NCBI GenBank assembly: GCA_963746845.1 | Contig: CAVVCZ010000007.1 | Location: 60,488 to 124,487, forward strand | Direction of reading: 5' to 3' | DNA: 64,000 nt | Source of the DNA: an uncultured Chloroflexia bacterium | Lineage (GTDB): Bacteria; Chloroflexota; Limnocylindria; Limnocylindrales; CSP1-4 | In this document: positions 31,908 to 51,144 of the stretch, piece by piece | Position numbering within the stretch: the stretch's first letter is position 1 | How the letters are laid out: each line of letters begins with the position of its first letter | The notes under the pieces: generated by a model | Databases searched by the model: none | Told to the model about the DNA's origin: nothing | The model's input: the letters and a program-made list of their open reading frames with translations, nothing else | Position numbers and translations under genes: made by a program

Positions 31908-34082
31908 TCAGCGGCCGGCCCGGATCTTCGGCAGCGGCGGCAGGGCGCGCTTGCCCTCGACCAGGAAGTGCCGGAACCAGTCCCGGACGACCTTCAGGTT
32001 CTCGGCCCGACGGAACGGCGTGCCGGAGCGCGTCAGCTCGTGGGTCTCCTCGGGAACCCGGAGCAGGCGGACCGGCCGCTTGTGTGAGCGGAGGACCGTG
32101 AACAGCTCCTCGGCCTGGCCGATGGTCGTCCGGATGTCGTTCTCGCTGTGCTGGATGAGAAGCGGCGTCGTGATCCCGTCGGCATGCGTGATCGGCGAGA
32201 TCTCGCGGAAGTACGCCGCGTCGTCCCATGGCACGGCCTTGAACTCGTAGCGCGGCCAGAACCCGCTGCTGATGTCGCCGGTCAGGAACAGGAGCGACAT
32301 GTCGCTCACCGATCGGCAGGTCATCGCCGCGGCGAACCGGCCGTCCTGACCGAGGATCCAGTTCGTCAGGTAGCCGCCGTACGAGCCGCCGGTCAATCCG
32401 AGCCGGGCCGGGTCGGCCAGACCGTCGGCGACCAGCGAATCGATCCCGGCGAGGACGTCTCGCATTGGTCCGGGGCCCCAGTCGCGGATGTTCGCCTCGT
32501 TGAACGCGCGACCGTAGCCCTCGGAGCCGCGTGGGTTGCAGAAGAAGACCCCGATCCCGGTCGCGGCGAGCAGCTGGAACTCGAGCATCGGCGACCAGCC
32601 GTACAGGGTGTGCGGCCCGCCGTGGATCTCGGTGACGAGCGGCGCGGGTGCGGGGCGACGCCGACCGGTCCCCTTCGAGCCGTCGGTCGTCGCCGGGGCC
32701 GGCGCGAGGTACCACCCCTGGATCCGCCGGCCGTCGACGGTGACCCAACGCTCGACGGGCTCGCGCAGCTCGACCTCCGCGTGGAACTCGTGGTTCAGGT
32801 CCGTGACCCGGCGCGGCTCGCCCCGGGCGCCGTCGCGGACCCACACGTCGCTCAGCTCCGTCGGCGACGACTGGAGCCAGGCCGTTCGAGTGCTCCCGGA
32901 CCCGGTCGACTGATCGAACGCGCTGATCCCGTGGTGGCCGGTCGTCAGCCGCTCGACGCGGCCGTCCGCGGCCGACACGCGATACAGCTCCTGGCTCCCC
33001 TCGGCGGGTGCGAGGAACGTGATCCAGGCCCCGTCGGCGGAGGCGACCAGCCGCGCCGGCTCACCGGGGACGATGTCGCTGTTGAGGGTCGACGCCGGCA
33101 TCAGGTCGTGGGCGCCGGTCAGGTTGCGCCCGCCGCGTGGCACGGCGGCATCCGACCCGTCGGCGGCGATCAGCCAGACATCACTGCGGTAGAAGTTCCC
33201 GGGCAGGTACCCGCCGAGCGCCGCGACCGCCGAGCCGTCGGGCAGCCAGGTCGGGTTGAACAGGATCGCGGGGTCGCCGGTCAGCCGGGTGCGCCGGCCG
33301 TCCGCGATGTCCAGGGCCACGAGATGCGAGCGGGTCTCGAGATCGTGGTCGCGGCGGAGGTTCGTTGCGTAGACGATGCGGCGGCTGTCGGGCGACCAGG
33401 CCGCGCCCCCGACGCCCGCGTGCTCGGACGTGAGACGGCGCGCCTCGCCCGTTCGCGCGTCCACAAGCCACAGCTGGGCGATCGTGTGGTAGACGAAGCC
33501 CGCCCCGTTGAACAAGTAGCCGAGTCGGTCGACGAAGTGGTAGTCGGACTCGGGCTCGTCACCCGGCTTCGGCGTCGGGGTCGTGCCGCGCAACCGGCGG
33601 TCCTCGACGCGCGTCGAGCCGCGGGACGAGCTCGACGCCAGGAGCCAGCGACCGTCCGGCGACCACTCGAAGCTGTCGACGCCGCGCGGCAGGTCCGTGA
33701 GCCGGCGCGCCTCGCCGCCGTCGAGCGACAGCAGGTGCACCTGCTGGGCATCCTCGCGCGTCTTCGGGTCGCCGGCCGTCGGCTCCTCCTCGACCTGGAG
33801 CCGTCGATCCGACAGGAACGCGAGCGTCCTCCCGTCGGGCGAGAAGCGGGGCGACCGATCGTGCCGGGATCCGATCGTCAGACGACGCGGCTCGCTCGCC
33901 CCGTCCGCCTCGACGGCCCACAGCGCGTGGCGGTAGCCGTCCATCGTCGGGGCGACGGTCTGGACCGTGAAGACCGCCAGCCGGCCGTCCGGCGAGAGAC
34001 GCGGCTCGGTCGCGATCCGGAAGCGGTACAGGTCCTCCGGCCGGAACGAACGCCGTACGGGCTTCGAGGTTCGGGTGGACAC
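31908..34082 (-). CDS. S9-family serine peptidase (prolyl oligopeptidase/acylaminoacyl-peptidase type) with N-terminal beta-propeller
   Basis: 724 aa. Repeated WSPDG/FSPDG propeller motifs, C-terminal catalytic GGSYGGY (Ser nucleophile), and the Asp/His region. Confidence 0.85.
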   Translation of the reverse strand: MSTRTSKPVRRSFRPEDLYRFRIATEPRLSPDGRLAVFTVQTVAPTMDGYRHALWAVEADGASEPRRLTIGSRHDRSPRFSPDGRTLAFLSDRRLQVEEEPTAGDPKTREDAQQVHLLSLDGGEARRLTDLPRGVDSFEWSPDGRWLLASSSSRGSTRVEDRRLRGTTPTPKPGDEPESDYHFVDRLGYLFNGAGFVYHTIAQLWLVDARTGEARRLTSEHAGVGGAAWSPDSRRIVYATNLRRDHDLETRSHLVALDIADGRRTRLTGDPAILFNPTWLPDGSAVAALGGYLPGNFYRSDVWLIAADGSDAAVPRGGRNLTGAHDLMPASTLNSDIVPGEPARLVASADGAWITFLAPAEGSQELYRVSAADGRVERLTTGHHGISAFDQSTGSGSTRTAWLQSSPTELSDVWVRDGARGEPRRVTDLNHEFHAEVELREPVERWVTVDGRRIQGWYLAPAPATTDGSKGTGRRRPAPAPLVTEIHGGPHTLYGWSPMLEFQLLAATGIGVFFCNPRGSEGYGRAFNEANIRDWGPGPMRDVLAGIDSLVADGLADPARLGLTGGSYGGYLTNWILGQDGRFAAAMTCRSVSDMSLLFLTGDISSGFWPRYEFKAVPWDDAAYFREISPITHADGITTPLLIQHSENDIRTTIGQAEELFTVLRSHKRPVRLLRVPEETHELTRSGTPFRRAENLKVVRDWFRHFLVEGKRALPPLPKIRAGR

Positions 34083-34117
34083 GACGGCGACGAGTCTAGC
34101 GCTACCATCCCTCGACG

Positions 34118-34888
34118 ATGCGCGACCAGCTGTCGCTGCCGCTGGAGCCCGACGTCCAGCCGCTGCCGAACCTTCCCGACGGGCTGCGGCCGATGCTCCC
34201 CCGGATGATCGCCGAGCCCTTCGACTCCGCGGTCCACCTGTTCGAGCCGGCCTGGGGCGGGACCCGGGCGCTGGCGTTCATCGGGCCGGCCGAGGACCCG
34301 GGCGCCGGCGAGGTCCGGATCCTCGACGGCGAGGGTCGCGACCTGGGCCCCGCCCTGCCGGAGCTCGCGGGGATGGCGGTGCGCGTCGACGCGCGGTCCG
34401 CGGTGCTCGACGGGGAGCTCGTTGCGGTCGACGAGGCGGGCCGCGCGGACCCGGCCGAGCTGGCACGCCGGATCGGCGGAGGCGCCGGCCGGCCGGTGGC
34501 GTTCCTGGCATTCGACCTCCTCCACATCGATGGGCGGTCGCTGCTCTCGACGCCGCTCCACAAGCGACGCAACCTCCTGCGCCGGATCCTGCACCCGGGC
34601 GACGAGGTCCTCGCGGTGCCCGCGATCGCCACCGAGGGCCGGGCCCTCCACGCCGCGGCCGCGGCGCAGGGGATCGCCGGGGTGATGGCGCGCCAACGGA
34701 CGAGCCCGTACCTCCCGGGCACGATCTCGCGGCTGTGGCGGTTCATCGCAACGGAGCCCAACCCGACCCCGGCGGCCGCGGCGAACCCGGATCTGGGCCT
34801 GGGGCTGGAGCTGACCGAGCCGAGCGCGACGGCCGCGGCCCCGGTGGTCGCCTTGATCCGGAGACTCCCCCTGCTCTTCGACGAGTAG
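34118..34888 (+). CDS. ATP-dependent DNA ligase adenylation-domain homologue lacking the motif I lysine
   Basis: 256 aa. Ligase motifs III (AVLDGELVAV), IV (FDLLHIDG) and a V-like motif (GIAGVMARQ) are present. Motif I reads FEPAWGGTR instead of EPKxDGxR (K to A, D to G). No OB domain. Confidence 0.55.
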   Translation: MRDQLSLPLEPDVQPLPNLPDGLRPMLPRMIAEPFDSAVHLFEPAWGGTRALAFIGPAEDPGAGEVRILDGEGRDLGPALPELAGMAVRVDARSAVLDGELVAVDEAGRADPAELARRIGGGAGRPVAFLAFDLLHIDGRSLLSTPLHKRRNLLRRILHPGDEVLAVPAIATEGRALHAAAAAQGIAGVMARQRTSPYLPGTISRLWRFIATEPNPTPAAAANPDLGLGLELTEPSATAAAPVVALIRRLPLLFDE

Positions 34889-34964
34889 CCCGTTTCGCAC
34901 TCGACTGCGTTCGTCGCGCATGGGCGTCGCTGGCAAGGCGGCGGGGAGGACAGAGCGAGCGCCT

Positions 34965-36344
34965 TCAGGGTGCGTGAGCGAGGACCGCAGCCGCCAACGC
35001 AGTCCAGCGGCGTTCAGGCGCGACAGCGCTATCCCCGGCGGGCGCCGTCACGTAGGCGCGGATCCCGGGGCGCTGGCCGTAGAGGAGCACGCCGGCGCCG
35101 TAGATCCGGACCGCGATGACCGCGGTCACGAGGATCGTCAGGACGAGGATCGAGATCGAGACGACGAGCTCCATCGGATCGACCCGCCCGACGGCCAGCC
35201 GGGTGAGCATCACGAACGGGCTCCAGAACGGGATGTACGAGGCGAGGCGGATGAACCAGGTGATCCCGCCGGTCAGGGCGAGGATCGCCTGGAGGTAGCC
35301 GAGGATCGCGATCAGGCTGAGCGGCAGGGCGATGATCTGGAGGTCCTCGGGCCGGCTCACGAGGGACCCGGCCGCCGCGTAGATCAGCGAGTACAGCGCG
35401 AAGCCCAGGACGTAGTAGACGGCAAACGCGGCGAGGAGTGTCGGCGTCAGGGCCGCGAGCGACGGCGCGATGCCGGCCGACGGACCGAGGACGGCGTTCG
35501 CGATCCGATCCTCGAGGAGCAGCACGAGGATCGCCGGCGTGAGCACGATCGCGACCTGGGTCGCCCCGGCCAGCCCGATCCCGAGCGCCTTCCCGATGAC
35601 GAGCTGGCGGGGCGACGCGGCGCTGATCAGCAGCTCCATGACCCGTGACGACTTCTCCGCGACGACGCCCGCCGCGACCCACATCCCGTAGATCACGATC
35701 GTCAGGAAGATCAGGATCCCGAAGACCGCGCCGACGATCAGCCGGCTGGCATACGCCGAGGCGCCGATTGTCGAGGTCCCGCCGCCGCCGGCGGCGCGCA
35801 GGATCTGGGTGTCCGGCAGCTCGAACCCGCTCGCCGGGTTGCGACTCGCGTAGTCGAGAACCGCGACGCCGAACATCCCGAGCGTGAGCTGGGTGAGCGT
35901 GTCGTTGCCCATCGTCTCGCCGAGCTGGACCTGGGTGACGAGCTGGCCGTTCGGCTGGCGGGTCGTGATGATGGCCGCGTCGTACTGGTGGTCCCCGACG
36001 CCGTTCACCGCCTCGCCGCCGCTCGGGACGCGGACGACGTCGAAACGGGTGCCACCGTTCTGGTTGAGGATCGCCAGCAGCGTGGAGGCGGTCCGCTCGG
36101 CGAGCGCCGGGTCCGTGGCGACGACGGCGATCCGCGTCGAGCCGCCGCGCTCGACGAAGCGGGCCGCGATCGGCAGCAGCGCCACGATCAGGGCGATGAT
36201 CGTCAGGGTCACCGTCGACACGTGGAAGATCCGCGAGCGGACGAGCTCGCGGTACTCGCGCGTCGCGACGTGGGTCGTGTTCGGGAAGGCCGGCTCGTCG
36301 CGCTCCGGGACGTCCCCCGTGCTCGGCGTCGACGTGCCGTTCAT
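34965..36344 (-). CDS. ABC-2 family transporter permease
   Basis: 459-aa protein starting MNGTSTPSTG..., with an N-terminal TM plus large extracytoplasmic loop and a C-terminal 5-6 TM ABC-2 core. ATG at 36342-36344 overlaps the ATPase stop. Confidence 0.75.
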   Translation of the reverse strand: MNGTSTPSTGDVPERDEPAFPNTTHVATREYRELVRSRIFHVSTVTLTIIALIVALLPIAARFVERGGSTRIAVVATDPALAERTASTLLAILNQNGGTRFDVVRVPSGGEAVNGVGDHQYDAAIITTRQPNGQLVTQVQLGETMGNDTLTQLTLGMFGVAVLDYASRNPASGFELPDTQILRAAGGGGTSTIGASAYASRLIVGAVFGILIFLTIVIYGMWVAAGVVAEKSSRVMELLISAASPRQLVIGKALGIGLAGATQVAIVLTPAILVLLLEDRIANAVLGPSAGIAPSLAALTPTLLAAFAVYYVLGFALYSLIYAAAGSLVSRPEDLQIIALPLSLIAILGYLQAILALTGGITWFIRLASYIPFWSPFVMLTRLAVGRVDPMELVVSISILVLTILVTAVIAVRIYGAGVLLYGQRPGIRAYVTAPAGDSAVAPERRWTALAAAVLAHAP

Positions 36345-37333
36345 GCTGCGTCCTCCGCGGTCGACGGCCGGGCGGTCGCGGGGTCCGTCGCCGCGCGCCC
36401 GGCCGCCTCGACCGGCGGCTCCTCGGCGTCGACCGGCCGACCGACGTGGTCGATGAAGATCTGCTCGAGCGACGGCTCGGCGACCTCGAAGTGGCTGACC
36501 CGCGTCCCGGCGGCCATCGCCGCCGCGAGGATGGTCTCCGGCTCGACGCCGGCGTCCAGCTCGATCTCGGACCGATCGATCCCCGGTCGCAGGATCCGCG
36601 CGCCCGGGACGCCGGCCAGCCAGCCGAGGCGATGGTCGCCGTCGACCGAGAGGCGGACCAGGCGCCGGCCGCCGGCTCGCTTGATCTGGCGGAGGGGCCC
36701 GCCCACCACGACCCGGCCGTGATCGACGATCGCGATCAATTCGCACATCGCCTCGACCGTCTCCATCTGGTGGGTCGACAAGATCAGCGTCCGGCCGCCG
36801 TCGCGGAGCTCGAGCAGCGCCTCCCGCAGCAGCGCGACGTTGACCGGATCGAGCCCCGTGAACGGCTCGTCCATCAGGAGCACGGGCGGCTCGTGGAGGA
36901 CCGCGGAGATCAGCTGGATCTTCTGCTGGTTGCCCTTGGACAGCTCCTCCGCCCGTCGCTCGGCGAGGTCCGAGACCCGCAGCCGGCGCAGCCAGTCGAG
37001 AGCCGCCTTGCGCGCGACGTCGCGGGTCATCCCGTGGAGCGACGCGAAGAACACGAGCTGGTCGAGGACGACCATCCGCGGGTAGAGCCCACGCTCCTCG
37101 GGCAGGTAGCCCCAGGTCCGGCGCGGCAGCCCGCGCGTGTCGGCGCCGTTCCAGTCGATCCGGCCGTGATCCGCGGCGAGGACGCCGAGCGCGATCCGCA
37201 TCGTCGTCGTCTTGCCGGCGCCGTTCGCGCCGAGGAACCCGAAGATCTCGCCGCTCGGGACCTCGAACGTCAGCCCGTCGAGGGCCACGACCGAGCCGAA
37301 GTGCTTGTGCAGATTCTCGATGCGCAGGCTCAC
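36341..37333 (-). CDS. ABC transporter ATP-binding protein (with C-terminal extension)
   Basis: Walker A GANGAGKTTT, signature LSKGNQQKIQL, Walker B LLMDEPFTGLD. 330 aa. Confidence 0.9.
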   Translation of the reverse strand: MSLRIENLHKHFGSVVALDGLTFEVPSGEIFGFLGANGAGKTTTMRIALGVLAADHGRIDWNGADTRGLPRRTWGYLPEERGLYPRMVVLDQLVFFASLHGMTRDVARKAALDWLRRLRVSDLAERRAEELSKGNQQKIQLISAVLHEPPVLLMDEPFTGLDPVNVALLREALLELRDGGRTLILSTHQMETVEAMCELIAIVDHGRVVVGGPLRQIKRAGGRRLVRLSVDGDHRLGWLAGVPGARILRPGIDRSEIELDAGVEPETILAAAMAAGTRVSHFEVAEPSLEQIFIDHVGRPVDAEEPPVEAAGRAATDPATARPSTAEDAA

Positions 37334-37496
37334 CGCGCCTCACCGATCCGGACGCTCACCGGCGGAGGATAGCCCGCGATCCCCCCGACCGTCCCCGGAC
37401 GATGGTCCCGGGCCATGCGATGATGACCCGGTGACCGCGCAGCGTGAAACCACCGAATCACCCGCCGGGAGCGGCTCGCCGACGGCGCCCGTCCGG

Positions 37497-37841
37497 ATGC
37501 ACGCGGATCGCGCCGCCCGCACGTTCGCGATCGACTGGGCGGACGGCCACACGACCGTCTACGACTTCACGCCGCTGCGCTGGCTGTGCCCATGCGCGTA
37601 CTGTCGGGGCGAGGCCGGGCTGCCCGGCTGGCTGGACTCCGCGCCGACCCTGACCGACGAGCAGACACGGATGACCGACATCCATCTCGTCGGCAACTAT
37701 GCGGTCTCGCCGCACTGGGGCGACGGCCACTCGACCGGGTTCTACACGTTCCGCCTGCTCCGCGACCGCTGTCCGTGCCCGGAGTGCACGGCCCGCCGCG
37801 CGGCCGACACCGAGCAGGGCGTCCACCACCAGCACGCATGA
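37497..37841 (+). CDS. DUF971-family protein
   Basis: FAIDWADGHTTVYDFTPLRWLCPCAYCRGE ... IHLVGNYAVSPHWGDGHSTGFYTFRLLRDRCPCPEC, matching the DUF971 pattern including two Cys clusters. Start could also be the GTG at 37431. Confidence 0.6.
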   Translation: MHADRAARTFAIDWADGHTTVYDFTPLRWLCPCAYCRGEAGLPGWLDSAPTLTDEQTRMTDIHLVGNYAVSPHWGDGHSTGFYTFRLLRDRCPCPECTARRAADTEQGVHHQHA

Positions 37842-37851
37842 GGGAGCTCCG

Positions 37852-38199
37852 ATGATCGTCGCCACGACCCCGTCCATTGCCGGCTACCGCGTCGTCGAGA
37901 CGAAGGGCCAGACGTTCGGGCTCGTCGTCCGCAGCCGAGGCTTCTCCGGCAACCTGATCGCCGGGCTGCGCTCGCTCGGCGGCGGCGAGATCCACGAGTA
38001 CACGTCGCTCCTCGAGGACACCCGACGCCAGGCCCTCGACCGGCTCGTGAAGAACGCGACGCTGATGGGCGGCAATGCCGTCGTCTCGATGCGCTTCGAC
38101 AGCTCGGAGCTGGCCGGGACGATGTCCGAGATCGTCGCGTACGGCACGTCCGTGGTGATCGAGCCCGATTCCGCCGCGCCCCAGGCGACGGCCGAGTAG
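37852..38199 (+). CDS. YbjQ/UPF0145-family protein (heavy-metal-binding domain fold)
   Basis: MIVATTPSIAGYRVVETKGQTFGLVVRSRGFSGNLIAGLRSLGGGEIHEYTSLLEDTRRQALDRLVKNATLMGGNAVVSMRFD..., the classic UPF0145 sequence. GAGGGA RBS upstream. Confidence 0.75.
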   Translation: MIVATTPSIAGYRVVETKGQTFGLVVRSRGFSGNLIAGLRSLGGGEIHEYTSLLEDTRRQALDRLVKNATLMGGNAVVSMRFDSSELAGTMSEIVAYGTSVVIEPDSAAPQATAE

Positions 38200-38221
38200 C
38201 GGGCCGCCCGCAGAACGCCCG

Positions 38222-38563
38222 ATGCTCAGCCCGACGGTCCGGATCGTCGCCGCGGCGATCGCGGTCCTGCTGCTCCTCGGCGGCCTGATCGCGACGCCGT
38301 TCGCGGGGTTCAGCGGGATCTGGGCAACCGTGATCGGCGCGGTGATCCTCATCGCCCTCGTGATCGAGCGGAACCGCTACCGATCGGAGGCGGCCGATCG
38401 ATCGTTCGACGGGGCCGGTCCGGGCGGCGGCGAGCCGATCGGCACGCTCGAGCCGCGTTTCCGGCCGACCGAGGAACGGTTCGTCGACCCGACGACGCGT
38501 CGCCGCATGCGCGTCTACCTCGACAACCGCTCCGGCGAGCGGCGCTACGTGGCGGAGGATTGA
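38222..38563 (+). CDS. small hypothetical membrane protein (2 TM)
   Basis: 113-aa ORF with two hydrophobic helices followed by a charged tail. Co-oriented with ppk1 immediately downstream. No recognisable family. Confidence 0.35.
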   Translation: MLSPTVRIVAAAIAVLLLLGGLIATPFAGFSGIWATVIGAVILIALVIERNRYRSEAADRSFDGAGPGGGEPIGTLEPRFRPTEERFVDPTTRRRMRVYLDNRSGERRYVAED

Positions 38564-38673
38564 GGGAGGGACAGGACGTTCGACCGGGTGGTTTCCGAAC
38601 AGGGGCGTGCTATCCTCGCCCGCCCGAGCGAGCCGCTGAGGCCCGCCGCCCACGGGAGTCCGACTCCGTCCCG

Positions 38674-40899
38674 ATGACCGCGCTCCCCGCGTCCTCCGCC
38701 AGCCCCGAACCGTCCGAAACCCGACGGTCGGGTGCGGTCGCCACGGGCAGTGCCCCCGCGGCGAAGCCACGGACGCCCCGCGAGAGCCGACGCGCGACGA
38801 AGACCGCGTACGTCAACCGCGAGCTGTCCTGGCTGGACTACGCGGGCCGGGTCCTGTACGAGGCGCGCGACGAGCGGAACGCGGTCCTCGACCGGGTGAA
38901 CTTCCTGACGATCTTCGCGAGCATGCTCGACGAGTTCTTCCAGATCCGGGTCTCGGGGCTCCGCCAGCAGGTCCACGCCGGCTCGACCACCACCTCCCCG
39001 GACGGCCTGACCGCCGGCGAGCAGCTCGCCGCGTCGCGGGAACAGGTCCTCGCGCTCGTCACCGAGCACAGCGCGGCATGGGCGGACGTCCGACGAGCCC
39101 TGGCGGCGGCCGGGATCGAGATCGTCAAGTACAACTCGATCCCCGAGCACCACGAGAGCCTCCGCCAGCGGTTCATCGACGAGATCTATCCCGTGCTGAC
39201 CCCGCTCGCGGTCGATCCGGGCCACCCGTTCCCGTACATCTCGACGCTGAGCCTGTCGATCGCGGTCGGGCTGCGCAACCCGGAGACCGGCGACCTGCAG
39301 TTCGCCCGGGTCAAGGTGCCGCAGATCCTGCCGCGGCTCTACCAGGTGGAGCCGAACCGGTTCGTCCTCCTCGACTCGATCATCGGCGCGAACCTCGACC
39401 TCCTGTTCAGCGGCATGGAGGTCGTCGAGCACCACCTCTTCCGGGTCACCCGCAACGCGGACCTGGCGCTCGAGGAGGACGAGGCCGACGACCTGCTGCT
39501 CGCGATCGAGGAGGAGCTCCGACGGCGGCGCTTCGGCGAGGCGGTCCGTCTCGAGGTCGAGCGATCGATGCCCGCCGGAACCCGGGCGATCCTTCTGAAC
39601 GGGCTCGGCCTCGGCGAGGACGACGCCTACGAGGTCCGGGGCATGCTCGACCTGACGGGTCTGCGTGACCTCGTCGACCTCGATCGCCCGGACCTGAAGG
39701 GCGAGCCCTGGACCCCGGTCACGCCGCCCCGCCTGGTCCCGCCCGACGAGGACGAGCCGGCCGACGTCTTCGCCGCGATCCGTCTCGGTGACCTCCTCGT
39801 CCACCACCCGTACGAGAGCTTCTCGGCGTCCGTCGAGCGGTTCATCGGGCAGGCCGTCGACGACCCTGAGGTCCTGACGATCAAGATGACGCTCTACCGG
39901 ACGTCGGGCGACTCGCCGATCGTCCGGGACCTGATCCGCGCGGCGGAGCGCGGCAAGCAGGTCGTCGTCCTCGTCGAGATCAAGGCCCGCTTCGACGAAG
40001 AGGCGAACATCGTCTGGGCCCGCCGACTGGAGCAGGCGGGCGCCCACGTCGTGTACGGCCTCGTCGGGCTGAAGACGCACTCGAAGGTCTGTCTCGTCGT
40101 CCGGCGCGAGGGCTCCGGGCTCCGCCGGTACGTCCACATCGGGACCGGCAACTACAACCCGAAGACCGCCCGCCTGTACACGGATCTCGGCCTCCTGACG
40201 ACCCGGCCGGAGCTCGGCGCGGACGTGACGGACCTGTTCAACGTCCTGACCGGGCTGTCGCGCCAGCGGACGTTCCGGCGGCTGCTCGTCGCGCCGCACG
40301 GCCTGCGGTCGCGGTTCCTCGAGCTCGTCGACCGGGAGATCGAGCACGCCAAGCTCGGCCGCGAGGCGCGGATCGTCGTGAAGCTCAACGCGATCGTCGA
40401 CCAACCCTCGATCGAGGCCCTCTACCGCGCGTCGCGGGCAGGCGTCGCGGTCCAGGTGATCGCCCGCGCGGCGTGCTCGCTCCTGCCCGGTGTGAAGGGC
40501 CTGTCCGAGACGATCTCCGTCCGCTCGATCCTGGGTGAGTTCCTGGAGCACTCCCGGATCTGGGGGTTCGCCAACGGCGGCGACGCGGACTGGTACATCG
40601 GCTCGGCCGACCTGATGGACCGGAACCTGGACCGGCGGGTCGAGGCGATGGTCCCGGTCGAGGATTCCGACGCCCGCAACCGGCTGGCCGAGATCATCGA
40701 GGTCATGCTCGCCGACGACCGGCGCTCCTGGCAGCTCGGACCCGATGCGGTCTGGCGCCGGACCGAGGACATCACCGGCCATCCGGGGACGTGCGACACG
40801 CACCGGGAGCTGAAGGCGCGAGCGCTCGGCGCGGTGCAGGTCGCGACCACGCCGCATCGACCGCGCGCCGGTGTCGGGTCGCTGGACCCACGCGCCTGA
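38674..40899 (+). CDS. ppk: polyphosphate kinase 1
   Basis: PPK1 N-terminal motif RELSWLDYAGRVLYEA...RVNFLTIFASMLDEFFQIRV, two PLD-like HKD regions, about 742 aa. ATG at 38674 inside the longer tracked ORF. Confidence 0.9.
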   Translation: MTALPASSASPEPSETRRSGAVATGSAPAAKPRTPRESRRATKTAYVNRELSWLDYAGRVLYEARDERNAVLDRVNFLTIFASMLDEFFQIRVSGLRQQVHAGSTTTSPDGLTAGEQLAASREQVLALVTEHSAAWADVRRALAAAGIEIVKYNSIPEHHESLRQRFIDEIYPVLTPLAVDPGHPFPYISTLSLSIAVGLRNPETGDLQFARVKVPQILPRLYQVEPNRFVLLDSIIGANLDLLFSGMEVVEHHLFRVTRNADLALEEDEADDLLLAIEEELRRRRFGEAVRLEVERSMPAGTRAILLNGLGLGEDDAYEVRGMLDLTGLRDLVDLDRPDLKGEPWTPVTPPRLVPPDEDEPADVFAAIRLGDLLVHHPYESFSASVERFIGQAVDDPEVLTIKMTLYRTSGDSPIVRDLIRAAERGKQVVVLVEIKARFDEEANIVWARRLEQAGAHVVYGLVGLKTHSKVCLVVRREGSGLRRYVHIGTGNYNPKTARLYTDLGLLTTRPELGADVTDLFNVLTGLSRQRTFRRLLVAPHGLRSRFLELVDREIEHAKLGREARIVVKLNAIVDQPSIEALYRASRAGVAVQVIARAACSLLPGVKGLSETISVRSILGEFLEHSRIWGFANGGDADWYIGSADLMDRNLDRRVEAMVPVEDSDARNRLAEIIEVMLADDRRSWQLGPDAVWRRTEDITGHPGTCDTHRELKARALGAVQVATTPHRPRAGVGSLDPRA

Positions 40900-40930
40900 T
40901 GGCCCAGCGCCGGACCGCGAGCCCGCGCCC

Positions 40931-42850
40931 GTGAGCACGACCTCGCGCGAAGGGCGGCCGGTCGAGATCGAGCTGAAGTACCGCGTCATCGATCGGCCGG
41001 CGGGTGATCACTACCTCGGCGCGGACGACGTCGCCGGGTTCGTCCCCGCGTCGGCGGTCCGCTCGGCCCAGGTCGAGGATCGCTACATCGACACGGTCGA
41101 CGGCGCCCTGGCCCGTGCCGGATTCGCGGCGCGGATCCGCCAGACGGCCAAGACGACGACCGTCGCGGTGAAGTCCGCCATCCGCCGGCGTGACCGGGGC
41201 GGCCTCCATCGGCGCGAGGAGCTGGAAGGTCCCGCCGACCGGACCTCGCCGCCGCGCGACTGGCCCCCGTCCGATGCCCGCTCCCTGATCCTCGAGCAAT
41301 GCGGCGACGCGCCGCTCGTCGAGGTCGTCACGATCCGTCAGCTTCGCCGGAAGCGGATCCTCGAGCGCGACGGGACGGCCGTCGAGGTGAGCCTCGACGA
41401 GGTGGATGCGGTCACGCGGAGCCGGGTCGTCGGCCGGTTCGTCGAGCTCGAGTTCGAGCTGGTGCGCGGCGACGAGGCCGCCCTCGTCGACATCGAACGG
41501 ACCCTCGCCGCCGACCCCGGGCTGGCACCGGCCGATTCGTCGAAGCTGGAGTCCGCGCTCCGCGCGGTGACCTCGACCGAATCACGCCGCGCCCGGAAGG
41601 GCGACCGCCTCCTGCCCCCGGTCGACGTCGACGACGCCGACGGCGAGGCGGATGCGGACGGCGAGCGCTTCGACGACGGCCAGGACGTCGGCCGGATCGT
41701 CGCGGCGGCGCTGGGCGAGGCTGCCCGTACCGCCGAGCCCGCCCCTCCCGCGAGCGGCGGAGCCACGCCGGCGGCGGCGGCGGCGAAGCGACGCACGGCA
41801 CCACGGACGGAGCCGGACGTCACACCGGTGATGGCGGGCGCATCCGTGCCCGAGGCAGCCCCGCCGAAGCCGGTCGCGACGACGCCGGACGATCCGGACG
41901 AGCGGCCGCGCCTCGTCGTCGGCAAGACGCCGGGCGTCCTCGCCGACGACCACCTCGCCGAGGCAGGCCGGAAGGTGCTCCGCTTCCACCTGGCCCGGAT
42001 GATCGCCCGCGAGGCCGGCACCCGGACCGGTGACGACCCCGAGGACCTCCACGCGATGCGCGTGGCGACCCGTCGCCAGCGGGCCGCGTGGCGGATCTTC
42101 GGCGAGGCGTTCCGCGACCGGCGCACGAAGGCCCATCGACGGCGCCTCCGCGAGGTCGCGTCGCGACTCGGGGCGGTCCGCGATCTCGACGTGCTGCTCG
42201 AGGCGATGGACGTCTATCGGGCGGACCTGCCGGTCGTCGAGCAGCGCGCCCTCGAGCCGCTGGTCGCGGCGTGGCGCGTCCACCGCGACGACGCGCGGGT
42301 GCTCCTCCTCCGCGAGCTCGATTCCGACGGATACCGTCGCTGGCTCGACGACTACGCGGAGTTCGTCCGGCACGAAGGCCTGGGCGCGCGACCGGTCGCC
42401 CCGACCGAGCCGCATCGGGTGCGAGACACCGCCGCGTCACGGGTCCAGGCCGCCTACGAGCAGGTCCGGGCCTACGAGCCGGTCCTGCGCTGGGCGGATG
42501 TCGACACGCTCCACGAGCTCCGGATCGCCGGGAAGTGGCTGCGCTACACGCTGGAGTTCGTGCGCGAGGCGCTCGGGCCGGACGCGGACGCCCTGATCGG
42601 CCGGGTCACGGCCCTCCAGGACCATCTCGGGCTCATGCACGACGCCGACGTCGCCGCGCACCTGGCGCGCGACTTCCTCCTTGACCACGCAGGCGACCTC
42701 AGCGACCTCGAGAGCGGCGCGATCGGGCGCTACCTCGTGAGCCGCGAACGGGAGGTCAACCGTCTGCGCCGGACCGTCGGCCCGACCTGGCGCGGCGTGA
42801 GCGGGATCGGGTTCCGGCGCGGCCTCGGACGGGCGCTCGCGGGTCTCTAG
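40931..42850 (+). CDS. CYTH-domain plus CHAD-domain protein
   Basis: N-terminal CYTH (EIELKY...E.E.E acidic pattern), C-terminal CHAD (HAMRVATRRQRAAWRIFGEAF...LREVASRLGAVRDLDV). Start is the GTG at 40931 or the upstream GTG at 40871, which overlaps the ppk1 end. Confidence 0.8.
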   Translation: MSTTSREGRPVEIELKYRVIDRPAGDHYLGADDVAGFVPASAVRSAQVEDRYIDTVDGALARAGFAARIRQTAKTTTVAVKSAIRRRDRGGLHRREELEGPADRTSPPRDWPPSDARSLILEQCGDAPLVEVVTIRQLRRKRILERDGTAVEVSLDEVDAVTRSRVVGRFVELEFELVRGDEAALVDIERTLAADPGLAPADSSKLESALRAVTSTESRRARKGDRLLPPVDVDDADGEADADGERFDDGQDVGRIVAAALGEAARTAEPAPPASGGATPAAAAAKRRTAPRTEPDVTPVMAGASVPEAAPPKPVATTPDDPDERPRLVVGKTPGVLADDHLAEAGRKVLRFHLARMIAREAGTRTGDDPEDLHAMRVATRRQRAAWRIFGEAFRDRRTKAHRRRLREVASRLGAVRDLDVLLEAMDVYRADLPVVEQRALEPLVAAWRVHRDDARVLLLRELDSDGYRRWLDDYAEFVRHEGLGARPVAPTEPHRVRDTAASRVQAAYEQVRAYEPVLRWADVDTLHELRIAGKWLRYTLEFVREALGPDADALIGRVTALQDHLGLMHDADVAAHLARDFLLDHAGDLSDLESGAIGRYLVSREREVNRLRRTVGPTWRGVSGIGFRRGLGRALAGL

Positions 42851-43797
42851 CTGATCCAGCCGTGGGCCAGCTCCTCGAGCCGGTCCCGCCAGCCCGTCCC
42901 GGCCCGGTCCGCCGCGATGATCGCGCCCTCCCGGATGCCGGTGTCGACGACGCGACCGGACGGCACGCCGACCCGGTCCAGGATCGCCTCGATGATCGCG
43001 GCGCCTCCGGCGAGCAGCCGGATCCGCGCCTCGCGCAGGCCGTACGTGGCCGCGAGCAGCTCCGCCGGGCCGGACGCCACGATCTCCCGCGCGGTCTCGA
43101 GCGCCGCGCGGTCGAGGACGTCGTTCCGCTCCGGGTCGCGGGCGCGGCGCAGCAGCTTCAGCAGGTTCGTCGCGGTGCCCCCGACGAAGATCACCTCGGT
43201 CGGCGGCCGACTCGGCGTCCAGTCGAAGGCCTCCGCGGCGGCCACGTTCAGCGCCGTGAACTGCTCCAGCGTGGGCGGGTCGCGATCGACGACCCGACGG
43301 GAGAGCCGACCCGCCCCGAGCTGGATGCCGGCGGCGCGAGCGAGACGTCCCGGGCCGATCTCCACGAGTTCGCTCGAGCCGCCGCCGATGTCGACGACGA
43401 GGAGATCGCTCTCGACGGCCCGACCGGCCGTCAGTCCGACGAGCGTCAGGAGCGCCTCCTCCTCGTGCTCGAGGACGCTCAGGGGCGTCCCGGTGCGCGA
43501 CGAGACCTCGGCGACGATCCGGGTCGCGTCGGCCAGGCGGCGGAGCGGCTCGGTGCCCATGACGATCGGCTCGCCGACCCCGAGGTCGCGGGCGAGGTCG
43601 ACATAGGCGCCGACGGTCGAGGCGAGGGTCGCCCGTCCGGCGGGCCCGAGCGATCCGGAGCCGTCCACGGCGGCGCCGAGCCCGAGGAATGTCGATTCGT
43701 CGTCGAGGACGACCAGCCCCGCCCGCTCCGGCCGGGCGATCAGCAGGTGGACGGACGTGGAGCCCAGGTCGATGGCGGCACCGGGACGCCGGGACAC
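42847..43797 (-). CDS. ppx: exopolyphosphatase / guanosine pentaphosphate phosphohydrolase (Ppx/GppA family)
   Basis: ASKHA-fold motifs AAIDLGSTSVHLLIA and DIGGGSSELV. 316 aa. Confidence 0.85.
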   Translation of the reverse strand: MSRRPGAAIDLGSTSVHLLIARPERAGLVVLDDESTFLGLGAAVDGSGSLGPAGRATLASTVGAYVDLARDLGVGEPIVMGTEPLRRLADATRIVAEVSSRTGTPLSVLEHEEEALLTLVGLTAGRAVESDLLVVDIGGGSSELVEIGPGRLARAAGIQLGAGRLSRRVVDRDPPTLEQFTALNVAAAEAFDWTPSRPPTEVIFVGGTATNLLKLLRRARDPERNDVLDRAALETAREIVASGPAELLAATYGLREARIRLLAGGAAIIEAILDRVGVPSGRVVDTGIREGAIIAADRAGTGWRDRLEELAHGWIS

Positions 43798-43812
43798 GGG
43801 TGGGCTGCCCCC

Positions 43813-44262
43813 TCAGGGGGTGGTCCGGGGACCGAACGCGGCGGCGTGCGCGCTCAGGACGAGCTGCTCGTGCCGCCGGCCGAGCGTCGTCGGCCGGTCG
43901 CCGCCGGGGCCGGGGCCCGCTTCCCCATCGGGACCCTCTTTGCCGCCGGGGCGGCCTTCGATGCTCGCGGTCGCGCCGCCGGAGCGCGCCGGCCGGGCCT
44001 GCAGCTCGCGGATCGCGTCGAGCAGCGCGCTGAGCTCGGTGATCTCGTCCCGGACCTCCGCCAGCCGGGTCGCCCGCTTGTCGCGGTTCCGTTTCGTCGC
44101 CTTCTCGAGTCGCGATGCGCGCCAGGTCTCCTCCGATCGGGCGGCGCCGAGGGCGAACTCGAGCCACTCGACGTGACGGGCGAGCGCCGCTGCGGGCGTC
44201 ATCACGGGCGCCGGCGCGGCGGCTGCGGTCTCGGATGCCGGCGTCGCCGGTTGCTCGGTCAT
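43813..44262 (-). CDS. hypothetical protein (coiled-coil plus Gly/Pro-rich segment)
   Basis: 149-aa ORF MTEQPATPAS... immediately upstream of ppx on the same strand. ATG at 44260-44262. No family recognised. Confidence 0.35.
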   Translation of the reverse strand: MTEQPATPASETAAAAPAPVMTPAAALARHVEWLEFALGAARSEETWRASRLEKATKRNRDKRATRLAEVRDEITELSALLDAIRELQARPARSGGATASIEGRPGGKEGPDGEAGPGPGGDRPTTLGRRHEQLVLSAHAAAFGPRTTP

Positions 44263-44360
44263 CGTGCCTCCTCGTCGGGCCCCCTGCGCATTCTCGCCGA
44301 CCGGGCGCCGCGGAGTCTCGGGCGCCCGGGTTAACGCGAGGTTATCGGCACGGGACACCC

Positions 44361-45068
44361 CTACAGCGCCAGGAACACCCCCATGACGATGAGCCAGAGC
44401 GACCAGGCGATGTAGGCGATCGGCACGATCGTCCCGGCCAGCGGCCAGCCATCGCGCTCGTTCGGGCCGACGAACTCGAGCGTGCCGACGAGGAGCGCGA
44501 GCCCGATCGGGACGGCCAGCCAGCCGAGCCATGCCGGCAGCGGTGTCGTCGTGACGATCGAGGCGGCCACGGCCAGGGTCCACAGGCCGGTGAACAGGTA
44601 CCCGAGGTGCTCGCCGATCCCCACGCCGAGCAGGCGATGGAGCGTCGCGAAGATCGTCTCGACCGTCCGGCGCTCCGCCGCGGCGTCAGCGGGCGATCGA
44701 TCGGGCGCGTCCGCCGCAACGTACCGTCGCGCGAGCTCGGGGACCGCGAACGGCCAGCGCACCAGTCCGAGCGCCTGGACCAGGGCCGCGGCGGCGCCGA
44801 GCGTGATCGCGAGGGCCGTCCAGACCGGCGCGGCGCCGAGCGCCACCGCGAGCAGGACCGCGAGCGGCAGCATCGCGAGCGCGCTCACGAGCAGCGCCTC
44901 CCAGCGGAGGATCAGCCCCGACCCGCCGGCATGGAACCGGCGAAGGATCTCGTCCGGTGCGCGACGGAGGATGTCCGGGTAGTCGAACGCCCGGCCCAGC
45001 GAGAAGAACGCCAGGTTGAACGCGATCGGCACGACGATCAGCAGGACGGCGGTCACGGTCTCGACCAT
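44361..45068 (-). CDS. DUF4386-family membrane protein
   Basis: 235 aa starting MVETVTAVLLIVVPIAFNLAFFSLGRAFDYPDILRRAPDEILRRFHAGG, matching the DUF4386 N-terminus. 6 TM. Confidence 0.5.
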   Translation of the reverse strand: MVETVTAVLLIVVPIAFNLAFFSLGRAFDYPDILRRAPDEILRRFHAGGSGLILRWEALLVSALAMLPLAVLLAVALGAAPVWTALAITLGAAAALVQALGLVRWPFAVPELARRYVAADAPDRSPADAAAERRTVETIFATLHRLLGVGIGEHLGYLFTGLWTLAVAASIVTTTPLPAWLGWLAVPIGLALLVGTLEFVGPNERDGWPLAGTIVPIAYIAWSLWLIVMGVFLAL

Positions 45069-45280
45069 CGCGGGAGTGTATCGGCCGGCCTCGGCCCCGT
45101 GTTGTTGACCCGCTGCAAACATCGCGGAAATCCGCGCCCTCGACGCTCTCGGGGGACCTCGATTCCGATCCGGCGGTCGTGCTCGGAGCGACGGCCGGTC
45201 CCTCCTCCTGGCCGGTGTGCTGCTCGGGCACACCGGCCAGCCTCGTTTCCGGGTAAGCGGACGTCGCGGAACCCCCGACC

Positions 45281-45372
45281 TGTTAATCGATGCTTAACAC
45301 CGTACAAAGCGACGGTTGACCCACGCTCGGCACGGTTCAGCCGTTGTCACGAGGCCGAGTCACGCCGTGACC
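45281..45372 (+). promoter_or_regulatory. pst promoter region: palindrome TGTTAA-N7-TTAACA (45281-45299) followed by PHO-box-like direct repeats (GGTTGAC, GGTTCAG, TGTCACG, AGTCACG; 45314-45364)
   Basis: Seen in sequence. Repeats resemble actinobacterial PhoP PHO-box units (GTTCACC-like at roughly 11-nt spacing). Located 40-130 bp upstream of the pstS TTG/RBS (GGAGAGGAGG). Confidence 0.4.
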
Positions 45373-45412
45373 GAACACCGTCGGCTCCCCAGGCCGGCGG
45401 AGAGGAGGACAC

Positions 45413-46652
45413 TTGATCGCGAGATCCCGCGTCGGCGCCGCCCTGACCGTCGCCAGCCTGTTCGTCGTCGCCGCCTGCAGCGGCGGTACCCTCAGTCCAT
45501 CACCGTCCGCCGCAGCCCCGTCGACGGTAGCAAGTGCTCCCGCAGACACTGGCGCTCCCTCTGGAGGAGCTCCCTCCGCATCGGTGGCAGCGCCGTCGGC
45601 CCAGGCAATCTCCTACCGCTGCTCGAAGGGCGACGGCCAGCTGAACGGCGCCGGATCGACATTCATCTTCCCGCTCATGCTCGAAGTGGGGCGACGACTA
45701 CAACACCAAGTGCGGCGTCAAGACTCAACTACCAGTCGATCGGCTCCGGCGGTGGCGTCGAAGGGCTGGACGCAGAACACCGTCGACTTCGGTGCCTCCG
45801 ACGCCTACCTCCAGGACGAGCGAGATCGCGGCCGCGGCCAAGAACGGCGAGCCGGTCGAGATCCCGGTCACCTTCGGGGCGGTGGTGGTCGCCTACAACC
45901 TGAAGGGCCTGTCGGCGCCGCTCAAGATGACGCCGGACATCGTCGCGAACCTGTTCCTGGGCAAGATCGCGAAGTGGAACGACCCTCGATCGCCGCGGCG
46001 AACCCGGGCGTGAACGCTGCCGGACATGGATGTCAGCGTCGTCCACCGCTCGGACGGGTCGGGCACCACGAGCATCTTCACCAACGTACCTGACGAAGGT
46101 CGAGCCCGGACTGGGTCACGACCGTCGGGGCCGGCGACCCGAAGAAGTCGGCCGGGCAAGACGGTCGGAATGGCCGACGGGTCTCGGGCGCGAGCGGCAA
46201 TGAGGGCGTCACCCAGGGGATCACCCAGACCGAGGGCGGGCGTCGGGTACATCGAGCTCGCGTACGCTCTGAAGAACAAGATCCCGTTCGCGGATGTGGC
46301 GAACAAGTCCGGCGCGTTCGTCACGCCGTCGCTCGACTCGGTCGAAAGCGGCCGCCGACCTGCCCGAGCTACCCGGCCGACCTGCGGTTCGACCTGGTCG
46401 ACACTCGACTCCCCGCACGGGCTATCCGATCACCGGGCACGACCTGGCTGATCATCTACAAGGACCTGTCGAAGGTGCTCAAGACCCAGGATCGAGCGAC
46501 CTCGTTGGCCGACTTTCTCTGGTGGGCGATCCACGAAGGCCAGGACAGTGCCGCGCCACTCTTCTATGCGGCGATCCCGGCAGGCCTGCTTCCGCAGGAC
46601 GAGGCGGCCGTGAAGTCGCTCAACTGGGGCGGCCAGGCGCTGCTGCCATAGT
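45413..46652 (+). pseudogene. pstS: phosphate ABC transporter substrate-binding protein PstS, broken into at least 4 frames
   Basis: N-terminal signal plus lipobox (VVAACSGG) and LNGAGSTFIFPLM in the first frame. Recognisable PstS segments then appear in shifted frames (SIGSGGGVEGL..., EIPVTFGAVVVAYNLKGL...KWNDP, VVHRSDGSGTTSIFT..., C-terminus ...KSLNWGGQALLP). Apparent stop at 46650-46652. Confidence 0.7.
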
Positions 46653-46761
46653 CTTCGATCCTCCTGTCACGACGCCGGCCCCCGGCATCCCGCGACGCCC
46701 GGGGCGGCGTCATCATTCCGGGAACCTACCCACTACATCGGGACGTGAGACGCTGCCGCAG

Positions 46762-47729
46762 ATGACGACCGTCGGTCAGGGCTTCGAGCAACGGCGATTG
46801 ACCAAGCGTTCCGTCGTGACCGGGGACCTCGTGTTCCGCGTGTTCACCGCCGCGCTGACATTCGCGGTTGTGCTCTTGATCAGCTTGATGGTCTACAAGA
46901 GCGTCGTGACCACCGTCCCGGTCTTCGACAAGTTCGGCGTTGTCGGCTTCGTCACCGGGACGCGATGGTCCCCGTCATTCGGAATCTACGGGGCCTTGCC
47001 GTTCATCTACGGGACGGTCCTGACCAGCGCAATGGCGCTCCTGATCGCAGTTCCGATCGCGCTTGGGATTGCGCTCCTCGTCACGGAGATGCTACCGCGA
47101 CGGATCGCCGGGCCCGTGGCCGTCGCCGTTGACCTGCTGGCCGCCATCCCGTCGGTCGTCTGGGGCCTGTGGGGGCTGCTCGTGCTCGTCCCGTTCCTGA
47201 GACCAATCGAGACGGCGATCGCCGGAAGCATCGGCCAGCTCATCCCGTTCCTTGGACCGCCCACGCCGGGACCCAGCTACTTCGCCGCCGGCGTCATCGT
47301 CGCGTTCATGATCATCCCGATCGTCGCCGCCGTCACCCGGGAGGTCTTCGCGGCCACCCCGCGGCTCCAGCGGGAGGCAGCCCTCGCCCTGGGCGGGACT
47401 CGCTGGGACGTCATCCGCCACGTCGTCGTCCCGATCGGGCGAACCGGCATCCAGGCGGCGGTGATCCTCGGGCTCGGACGGGCGATCGGCGAGACCATCG
47501 CGGTCACGCTCGTGATCGGGAACTCAACGAAGATCGGACCTCGATCTTTTCGCCAGGATTCTCGCTGGCCTCGGTCATCGCCAACGAGTTCAACGAAGCG
47601 ACCGAGCCGCTCCATCCGGAGTCGCTCATCACGCTGGGGGTCGTTCTGCTCGCGATCGCGGTGATCGTGAACGGTGCAGGTGTCGCCGTGCGTAGGCGCT
47701 TCGAGCAAGGTTCTGGCCGTGCTGGCTGA
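46762..47729 (+). pseudogene. pstC: phosphate ABC transporter permease PstC with a frameshift near 47530
   Basis: PstC TM core in one frame up to ...TLVIGNSTKIGP. The conserved C-terminus (IFSPGFSLASVIANEFNEATEPLHPESLITLGVVLL...) continues in another frame to the stop at 47727-47729. Confidence 0.7.
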
Positions 47730-47757
47730 TCCGACGCTCGTGTTCCGGCCGACGGGC

Positions 47758-49470: not shown

Positions 49471-49627
49471 GCGAACGAGAGGCTGAGGACTGACCCATGA
49501 CCGACGATCCGAACGCCCAACGCTCGTCCCATGCATCTCCCGTCATCGCGGCGGCGATGACGGTTGTGCGGAAGCGGCCGATTCATACAACGAAGCCCAT
49601 CCGCCGCGTCCGAGCCTCGACCTGGAC

Positions 49628-50700: not shown

Positions 50701-50703
50701 GCG

Positions 50704-51144
50704 ATGGGGCCGGTCGCCGCCGATCCGGTCCGGATCCTCGTCCTCTGCACCGGGAACTCGTGCCGGTCGATCCTCGCCGAGGCGCTGTTCCGCGAGCTCG
50801 GCGGGGCCCGGGTCGCGGTGGAGTCGGCGGGAAGCCATCCCGCCGGCCGCGTCGACCCGCGCACGATCCGCGTCCTCGATGAGGCGGGCATCGATCACGC
50901 CTGGGCCCGATCGAAGTCGATGACCGAGCTCTTCGACCGGCCGTTCGACCATGTGATCACCGTCTGCGACGACGCAGCCGAGGCATGCCCCGTCTTTCCG
51001 GGCCCGGCCGTGCGGACCCACTGGAGCATCCCCGATCCCGTCGACGCCACCGGGAGCGACGAGGAGCAGCTCGCCGTCTACCGCGCGACGATGGCCGATC
51101 TACGCGAGCGGATCACCGCGTTCGTCGCTACCCTCGACACGTGA
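50704..51144 (+). CDS. arsC: arsenate reductase, LMW-PTP family (thioredoxin-coupled type)
   Basis: Canonical P-loop LVLCTGNSCRSILAEA plus the second and third Cys (ITVCDDAAEACPVFPG). Confidence 0.75.
   Translation: MGPVAADPVRILVLCTGNSCRSILAEALFRELGGARVAVESAGSHPAGRVDPRTIRVLDEAGIDHAWARSKSMTELFDRPFDHVITVCDDAAEACPVFPGPAVRTHWSIPDPVDATGSDEEQLAVYRATMADLRERITAFVATLDT

Follow-up and report, generated by a model that had tools for sequence, protein, structure and literature searches.

What becomes of a DNA-ligase domain that has lost the lysine on which its chemistry depends? The question is raised by a gene at positions 34118..34888 of the forward strand in a 64,000-nucleotide stretch of DNA from an uncultured Chloroflexia bacterium (GTDB Limnocylindria, Limnocylindrales, CSP1-4; contig CAVVCZ010000007.1), the whole of which is referred to below as the window. 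An initial annotation, made from the letters alone, described the product as a stand-alone adenylation domain of the LigD/LigC type without the AMP-accepting lysine. Here, psiLig is used as a working name for this protein and its lysine-less relatives. We hold with moderate confidence that psiLig is a selected, non-catalytic pseudo-ligase derived from machinery for non-homologous end joining (NHEJ), which would serve as an adaptor or regulator and may be tethered to the sliding clamp.

The open reading frame (ORF) was confirmed as 256 amino acids plus a stop codon, and its GC content at third codon positions (0.95) is typical of genuine genes in a window of 72% GC. Pfam family PF01068 (DNA_ligase_A_M) matches residues 66-207 (E=1e-14), and the NCBIfam NHEJ-ligase models cover residues 18-207 (best E 5.6e-30) with scores far under their cut-offs, TIGR02779 reaching 101.6 bits against a trusted cut-off of 227.75 bits. 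The closest solved structure is the ligase domain of Mycobacterium tuberculosis (Mtb) LigD (1vs0/6nhx/6nhz; E=3e-17), whose FEGKWDGYR aligns with FEPAWGGTR of psiLig. An AlphaFold2 model, computed from a family alignment of 31 sequences, had a mean predicted local distance difference test (pLDDT) score of 87. The nucleotidyltransferase (NTase, adenylation-domain) fold at residues 21-211 (34178..34750, forward strand) scored above 95. When this model was compared with the PDB by Foldseek, the top 50 matches were all DNA ligases, the leading ones ATP-dependent (4eq5, E=1e-14), and the Mtb LigD ligase domain (6nhx, 1vs0) was recovered at 30-31% identity with probability 1.0. Taken together, the domain, template and structural matches demonstrate that the resemblance to ligases is not spurious, a possibility that the initial annotation had raised against itself. 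Its description of a stand-alone LigD/LigC-type domain agrees with all of these results. The alignment that it reported along the whole length holds for the core, about residues 20-211, and does not extend to residues 1-17 and 212-256, which are family-specific extensions outside the ligase-alignable region. It was also right about the OB fold: psiLig has no PF04679 match, and nothing follows residue 211 except a disordered linker and a single short helix.

The state of the active site was assessed by mapping the motifs of Mtb LigD onto psiLig, with conservation measured in 81 orthologous copies, namely the window's own and the 80 loci returned by a scan of one genome per GTDB species. K481, the nucleophile of Mtb LigD (PMC8656161) and acceptor of AMP, corresponds to A45, the motif I aspartate D483 to G47, and R486 to R50. 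Motif I is thus left as the remnant AWGGTR (residues 45-50; 34250..34267, forward strand), in which the glycine and arginine are kept and the lysine and adjacent aspartate are gone, as first annotated. Among the orthologues, position 45 is W, S, A, N or T and never K, which indicates that the former lysine site is unconstrained; position 47 is always glycine and R50 is invariant. Motif III (LDGELV, residues 97-102; 34406..34423, forward strand) is intact, with D98, G99 and E100, the counterpart of Mtb LigD E530, invariant. Motif IIIa (FLAFDLL, residues 129-135; 34502..34522, forward strand), which supplies the adenine-stacking aromatic residue, is likewise intact, F132 being conserved in 93% and D133 in 100% of copies.

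Motifs IV and V had been listed together with motif III as present, and for these two the statement holds only in position. In the motif IV remnant GIAGVMAR (residues 185-192; 34670..34693, forward strand), E613 of Mtb LigD is replaced by A187 (95% conserved) and K618 by R192 (100%). In the motif V remnant LWRFI (residues 206-210; 34733..34747, forward strand), both lysines of the canonical LigD W.K.K pattern are replaced, by arginine and isoleucine in the window's copy; across the orthologues W207 is conserved in 100% and R208 in 90%, and position 210 is isoleucine or valine. Motif VI has gone along with the OB domain. The positions that contact adenosine have been kept: E43 (96%), R50 (100%), E100 (100%), F132 (93%), R192 (100%) and an aliphatic residue at 190. 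Read by its residues and by the roles assigned to the ligase motifs, including motif IIIa (PMC7470946), the pocket is one that retains its nucleoside half and has lost the half concerned with phosphate, metal and nucleophile. True ligases use the motif V lysines, together with the OB domain and its motif VI, to orient the phosphates and to clamp DNA (PMC7470946).

With the lysine, the aspartate and the OB fold all missing, self-adenylylation should be impossible, in agreement with the initial annotation, and psiLig is predicted to be unable to form ligase-AMP. Compared with LigC and with the ligase (LIG) domain of LigD (M. tuberculosis Rv0938, approximately residues 449-759; PDB 1VS0, 6NHZ), psiLig shares the NTase fold, the order of the motifs, motifs III and IIIa, and the glycine and arginine of motif I, but it has no lysine nucleophile, no motif I aspartate and neither an OB domain nor motif VI, the catalytic positions in motifs IV and V are substituted, and it carries additional peptide motifs at its N- and C-termini. 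On these sequence features, psiLig is a homologue of LigD-LIG and LigC that nevertheless fails the features defining a ligase, and it should not be filed as one.

psiLig is vertically inherited and selectively maintained. The motif I lysine is absent from 120/120 of its closest database homologues (72-100% identity, approximately 250 amino acids), which carry [A/S/W/T]WGGxR, and from 81/81 orthologues, the search for which had been suggested with the initial annotation. The ORF is intact in all 81 genomes at 63-88% amino-acid identity, and nearly all of the 80 loci are labelled Candidatus Limnocylindrales, Chloroflexota or uncultured Chloroflexia. The median pairwise ratio of nonsynonymous to synonymous substitution rates (dN/dS) is 0.28 (interquartile range 0.23-0.33), and R50, D98-G99-E100, D133, R192 and W207 are invariant. 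In the orthologous loci the gene occupies one slot: DeoC and an S9 peptidase on the reverse strand, then psiLig on the forward strand, an ABC-2 permease and an ABC ATPase on the reverse strand, and GBBH-like_N, YbjQ and PPK1 on the forward strand. An intact, syntenic gene under purifying selection that lacks the lysine in every copy is neither a sequencing error nor a gene in decay. As a separate observation, psiLig orthologues at 64-76% identity were also found on contigs labelled Verrucomicrobiia (L004, L023), Methylomirabilota (L010) and Sulfomarinibacteraceae (L045). The gene order around them is that of Limnocylindria in L004, L023 and L045, while L010, at 2.4 kb, is too short to show it; these four contigs are probably mis-binned Chloroflexota sequence.

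Where such a protein came from was addressed through its more distant relatives. A search of 1.84 billion representative proteins returned 53 representatives at E<1e-30, and clearly canonical lysine-bearing ligases begin at about E-30. One informative relative, P0162 (362 amino acids), has FEPSWDGLR at motif I, an OB-like domain, a motif VI-like LIRPRPVAVRDEL, an N-terminal DQLTLQL and the tail LLALLQRLPLPED, and it aligns end to end with the LigD LIG domain at 33% identity. Its gene stops 5 bp before that of a canonical 932-amino-acid LigD with KWDG intact. DeoC/HTH and GBBH-like_N flank the two genes, in the chromosomal slot that psiLig occupies in the window. The same psiLig-LigD tandem was found in locus L088. 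In two further relatives of approximately 40% identity (P0198, P0254), the order is S9 peptidase, psiLig, GBBH_N, YbjQ and PPK1, with neither the ABC-2 insertion nor LigD. Two other loci show a LigD in this slot upstream of GBBH_N and YbjQ (L086, 3656-6454; L087, 889-3687) that is 75% identical to the LigD of locus L081, and upstream of it there are unrelated small ORFs in place of psiLig, with masked bases in L086; the tandem is thus not universal, even among close relatives.

A second lysine-less group retains both the NTase and the OB domain, has FEV[L/I/N]W[D/G/A]G at motif I and has often lost the motif III glutamate too. In loci L091 (2-1674) and L092 (671-2502) its genes form a Ku-psiLig arrangement in which psiLig starts 4 bp inside the end of the Ku gene, and a Candidatus Dormibacteria contig (L093, 5137-9763; protein P0203, FEVNWAGLR) carries a Ku-psiLig-LigD operon whose LigD has its lysine intact. 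The lysine-less proteins of these three NHEJ operons are LigC-like, with NTase and OB domains and lengths of 330-355 amino acids. For a further relative, P0264, LigD lies two genes away on the opposite strand, in convergent orientation. In all, OB-retaining lysine-less relatives stood in or beside NHEJ gene clusters in 6/6 contexts examined, from Dormibacterota and Chloroflexota, and the adjacent LigD kept its lysine in 3/3 cases whose sequence was checked. A profile search with lysine-less sequences gave 27 non-lysine proteins among 110 scorable top hits, several of them from Dormibacteria with tails of the form ...TVLxTLP[F/L/I].... In a rough neighbour-joining tree, nearly all lysine-less sequences fall apart from the canonical ligases, and three lysine-bearing KWGG sequences are nested among them. 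Limnocylindrales metagenome-assembled genomes do encode a full-length LigD, in another neighbourhood and with no adjacent Ku. In Limnocylindria, psiLig has stayed in the ancestral slot and lost its OB domain, and LigD is encoded elsewhere. Given that the OB-retaining relatives lie in or beside Ku/LigD clusters, a lone psiLig without Ku reflects secondary relocation and is not a puzzle.

The two extensions outside the ligase core are themselves conserved. At the N-terminus, where MRDQLSLPLEPD is the candidate DnaN-binding peptide, DQLSLPLEP (residues 3-11; 34124..34150, forward strand) contains QLSLPL (residues 4-9; 34127-34144), which fits the beta-clamp-binding hexapeptide pattern QLxLxL. The N-terminus M-x-D-Q-L-S-L-x-L-E is near-invariant across the 81 orthologues, with Q4, L5 and L9 conserved in 100% and L7 in 99%, and the family consensus is QLSLRL. 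Because the peptide stays constant under synonymous codon changes (L5, for example, is CTC, CTG, CTT or CTA), the peptide, rather than the DNA, is the target of selection. It is found in family members down to approximately 40% identity as QL[S/T/A/D/E/P][L/F]x[L/I/M]. Residues 1-20 have pLDDT values of 55-69 in the AlphaFold2 model, and this segment is probably disordered.

QLSLPL is the tight-binding beta-clamp motif of Escherichia coli Hda, which was used as a positive control, and the general clamp-binding consensus is QL[S/D]LF (PMC12309361). In Hda, the identical hexapeptide likewise sits on a flexible N-terminus; Hda is an AAA+ protein, however, and shares with psiLig only the short motif, by convergence rather than homology. 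The clamp motif is rare in background sequence: among 377,002 residues encoded by approximately 960 other ORFs of the window and of related loci, its loose form occurred 9 times against 8 expected from composition. QLxLxL is absent from 116/120 canonical LigDs, the remaining 4 having a sporadic internal match. Descent of the peptide from the linker between the PE and LIG domains of LigD was considered and rejected, given only a weak likeness (TRVDLSAA against DQLSLPLE) and the lack of QLxLxL in the same 116 LigDs. As a separate observation, two LigB-type proteins annotated 'DNA ligase-1' (P0512, P0513; approximately 580 amino acids, PF04675+PF01068+PF04679) carry canonical clamp pentapeptides near their C-termini, ending in …SSQLSLFDDPKTPAR and …NQLSLFGDDES. 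Clamp motifs of the QLSLF type do therefore occur on bacterial ATP-dependent ligases, and these two sequences suggest that some accessory bacterial ATP ligases are tethered to the clamp.

At the other end, an Ala/Pro-rich, variable and disordered linker (residues 212-238; 34751..34831, forward strand; pLDDT below 50 at 218-235) varies in length among the orthologues and has a mean column identity of 0.40, compared with 0.82 for the core. It leads to a conserved C-terminal tail, AAAPVVALIRRLPLLFDE (residues 239-256; 34832..34885, forward strand), in which P242, R249, L250 and P251 are conserved in 100% of copies. The C-terminal peptide of psiLig, APVVALIRRLPLLFDE, follows the motif A-P-V-(V/L)-A-L-I-(R/S)-R-L-P-(L/F) with acidic residues after it, and a helix is modelled at 240-248 (pLDDT approximately 79). 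A MAFFT alignment had placed this tail as a vestigial OB strand; that assignment was ruled out, since P0162 and the L088 gene carry the tail after an OB-like domain. The tail resembles the extreme C-terminus of LigD, GDLFAPVLALRQELPDL. In L088, the gene upstream of LigD ends in RPVLALLQRLPLGDD and that LigD itself in GDLFAPVLALRQELPDLA, and nearly all of 120 PE-LIG-Pol LigDs (P0271-P0390) end in GDLF-x-P/A-x-L-x(3)-Q-x-LP-x-L, a peptide matched in alignment by '...DPWADIDSVQQSLGPL' of 5op0 and 6sa0, two solved Pol-domain chains. This likeness may indicate a common partner of psiLig and LigD.

These features are consistent with a protein that takes part in the repair of DNA breaks or nicks without catalysis, as adaptor, scaffold or regulator, and among the options offered by the initial annotation, pseudoenzyme or regulatory partner fits best. 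In such a mechanism, psiLig would be docked on the beta sliding clamp by its N-terminal QLSLPL, in the manner of Hda and of the dead polymerase ImuB, and its NTase core would bind a nick or end, or an adenosine-containing ligand. The C-terminal PVxALIxRLPL tail would engage the partner of LigD's own tail, be it Ku, LigD or another factor, which could either bring in the ligation machinery or set psiLig in competition with it. A more specific version, which we advance tentatively as a possibility well short of even chances, is that end joining in Chloroflexota and Dormibacterota employs a third, dedicated component, a dead ligase paralogue (Ku-psiLig-LigD), and that the NTase-only form of Limnocylindria uses its Hda-type QLSLPL to link the sliding clamp to the repair machinery or to nicks and ends.

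One parallel in design is ImuB of the ImuA'-ImuB-DnaE2 mutasome, a dead Y-family polymerase that bridges the beta-clamp and its partners (PMC10421592, PMC11791113). The likeness is one of logic only, a dead enzyme fold combined with a clamp motif and a partner-binding C-terminus, which for psiLig are predicted from the sequence; the folds, a Y-family polymerase and a ligase NTase, are unrelated, and so are the pathways, translesion synthesis for ImuB and, as proposed for psiLig, end joining or nick repair.

A second parallel is eukaryotic NHEJ, in which DNA ligase IV, in a structural role separate from catalysis, and scaffolds such as XRCC4, XLF and PAXX serve synapsis and recruitment, accessory factors docking via short terminal peptides; the concept is common to both, but there is no sequence relation beyond the ligase superfamily. 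If the proposal is true, psiLig would be a bacterial counterpart of these non-catalytic scaffolds, and a dead ligase paralogue within Ku/LigD operons would be an unrecognised accessory factor, challenging the two-component Ku-LigD system as which bacterial NHEJ is described. It would also provide the first suggested link of an NHEJ-derived protein to the beta-clamp, in one large soil and freshwater class, and with psiLig the covalent nucleotidyltransferase superfamily would have a clear-cut natural case of a pseudoenzyme. Our literature search found no description of lysine-less or inactive ATP-dependent ligase homologues, nothing relevant on DNA repair in Limnocylindria, no third component of NHEJ operons and no clamp link for LigD-type proteins; the word 'clamp' does not occur in the LigD review consulted. 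What is new here is a branch of pseudoenzymes within the NHEJ ligase family that bears new putative docking motifs, and the functions proposed for it are computational predictions. In the databases, lysine-less proteins are labelled 'bifunctional non-homologous end joining protein LigD' or 'ATP-dependent DNA ligase', and automatic annotation thereby credits these genomes with a larger set of ligase and NHEJ functions than they have.

Several points weigh against the adaptor proposal. In the window's lineage, psiLig is not adjacent to Ku or LigD, and neither the window nor any of the 80 orthologous 20-kb loci (+/-10 kb) contains Ku or a PE or Pol domain of LigD. The ligase domain of Mtb LigD contacts Ku, with D522, K579 and L580 as reported contact residues; these correspond to A92, N152 and L153 in psiLig and are only partly conserved. 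The prediction of clamp binding draws on a motif with the same sequence that has been characterised in E. coli. The Ku-linked lysine-less relatives P0179 and P0184 have neither terminal motif, so that the clamp link, if real, is limited to one lineage. The likeness of the tails spans only 10-13 residues and could reflect convergence or chance, and the end of the LigD Pol domain may belong to the fold rather than form a free peptide. The neighbour-joining tree is crude and includes fragments.

Much of the same evidence would also suit a decoy that acts against NHEJ, in which psiLig competes with LigD for Ku, ends or the clamp and so restrains end joining, for example on replicating DNA. A tail that mimics the LigD C-terminus, homology to the very LigD domain that contacts Ku, a fold kept while the catalytic residues were lost, and a clamp motif that would put psiLig at replication-associated DNA are all in its favour. 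This explanation differs from the adaptor proposal in sign only; a single operon with Ku and LigD is nevertheless more typical of a cooperating subunit, and the Ku-contact residues are poorly conserved. We regard a decoy as unlikely, although it is the alternative that survives best.

A sensor of nucleotides or adenylates, or a residual enzyme, would explain the pocket in another way: it would bind ATP, AMP, NAD or 5'-adenylylated DNA (AppDNA), for instance protecting or handing over abortive AppDNA without a lysyl-AMP step. The selective pattern in the pocket agrees with this, the adenosine-contact positions being conserved and only those for phosphate, metal and nucleophile lost, but psiLig has lost both lysines of motif V as well as the OB domain with its motif VI, the conserved positions may serve fold stability alone, and the residues at position 45 (W, S, A, N, T) provide no conserved alternative nucleophile. 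A sensor or residual enzyme is somewhat less probable than a decoy.

The constancy of the neighbourhood raises a further alternative, namely that the fold was repurposed outside DNA repair, for example as a partner of the syntenic GBBH-like_N, YbjQ and polyphosphate genes, with its ligase ancestry merely historical. In Limnocylindria and the relatives of 40% identity, the constant neighbours are indeed the S9 peptidase, GBBH-like_N, YbjQ and PPK1 rather than Ku and LigD, and in locus L083 the GBBH_N gene lies 18 bp downstream of psiLig on the same strand. However, the synteny looks like part of a broad chromosomal collinearity, and the opposite-strand ABC-2 operon intervenes in the window's lineage. 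Ku and LigD are the clade's only functionally coherent neighbours, in all six OB-retaining contexts, and the QLxLxL motif points to DNA transactions. Repurposing is improbable, to nearly the same degree as a sensor.

The remaining two explanations fare far worse. A decaying, functionless relic of an NHEJ ligase, one of the options in the initial annotation, would account for the loss of multiple catalytic motifs and a whole domain, but it is very improbable in view of the 81 intact ORFs in the same slot, the dN/dS of 0.28, dozens of invariant positions that include the non-catalytic terminal peptides, and a conserved promoter-like element. That a normal ligase was misread or misassembled at its Lys and Asp codons of motif I, a possibility which the initial annotation had kept in view for the Lys codon, can practically be dismissed: broken pst frames show that the window's assembly is not flawless, but the lysine is missing in all 120 closest proteins and in 81 separate genomes, other motifs and the OB domain are missing too, and indel-type errors would not yield K->A plus D->G.

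The promoter-like element consists of GTCTAGCGCTACCAT at 34094..34108 of the forward strand, immediately upstream of psiLig, and includes TACCAT (34103-34108), a -10-like hexamer of the form TANNNT that begins 15 nt upstream of the ATG and leaves nine bases between its last base and the start codon. Of the 81 orthologous loci, 79 have TANNNT at -13 to -17, 67 of these at -15, and the full element is found once in the window against 0 expected. Across the window and L001-L080 its form is GTCTAGCG(N0-2)CTACCATCG, in which a TAGC..GCTA inverted repeat overlaps TANNNT; the AGTCTAG half is absent where the divergent S9 gene is absent. The element is a candidate promoter of psiLig. No Shine-Dalgarno sequence precedes the gene, so that the leader is probably very short and the mRNA near-leaderless. 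A generic scan of 33700-35200 for sigma-70 promoters and intrinsic terminators found nothing, and SOS control was rejected, as there is no LexA box (GAACN4GTTC) near psiLig and matches occur at chance level.

The immediate neighbours in the window are the S9 peptidase gene (31908-34082, reverse strand) and the ABC-2 permease and ABC ATPase genes (34965-37333, reverse strand), with no Ku gene adjacent, as first reported. The window contains no dnaN gene either. PADLOC found no anti-phage defence matches for psiLig of the window, P0203 or P0162, and no Rfam families or tRNAs were detected in the window. Farther downstream, phosphate and polyphosphate genes are packed at 37212-51144, among them GBBH-like_N, YbjQ and pst genes, PPK1 (38560-40899), CYTH+CHAD (40871-42850), Ppx/GppA (42847-43797, reverse strand), PhoU (49628-50257) and two tandem low-molecular-weight phosphatases (50254-51144). 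Within this block, a pstS-pstC-pstA-pstB-like region at approximately 45300-49500 has a GC content of 0.63-0.68, compared with 0.72-0.78 in its flanks, and its reading frames are interrupted and continue in different ones. The N-terminal part of PstB, for instance, is joined to the PstA ORF (47867-49210), its C-terminal part being found in 48844-49470. The broken frames are either assembly indel errors or pseudogenes.

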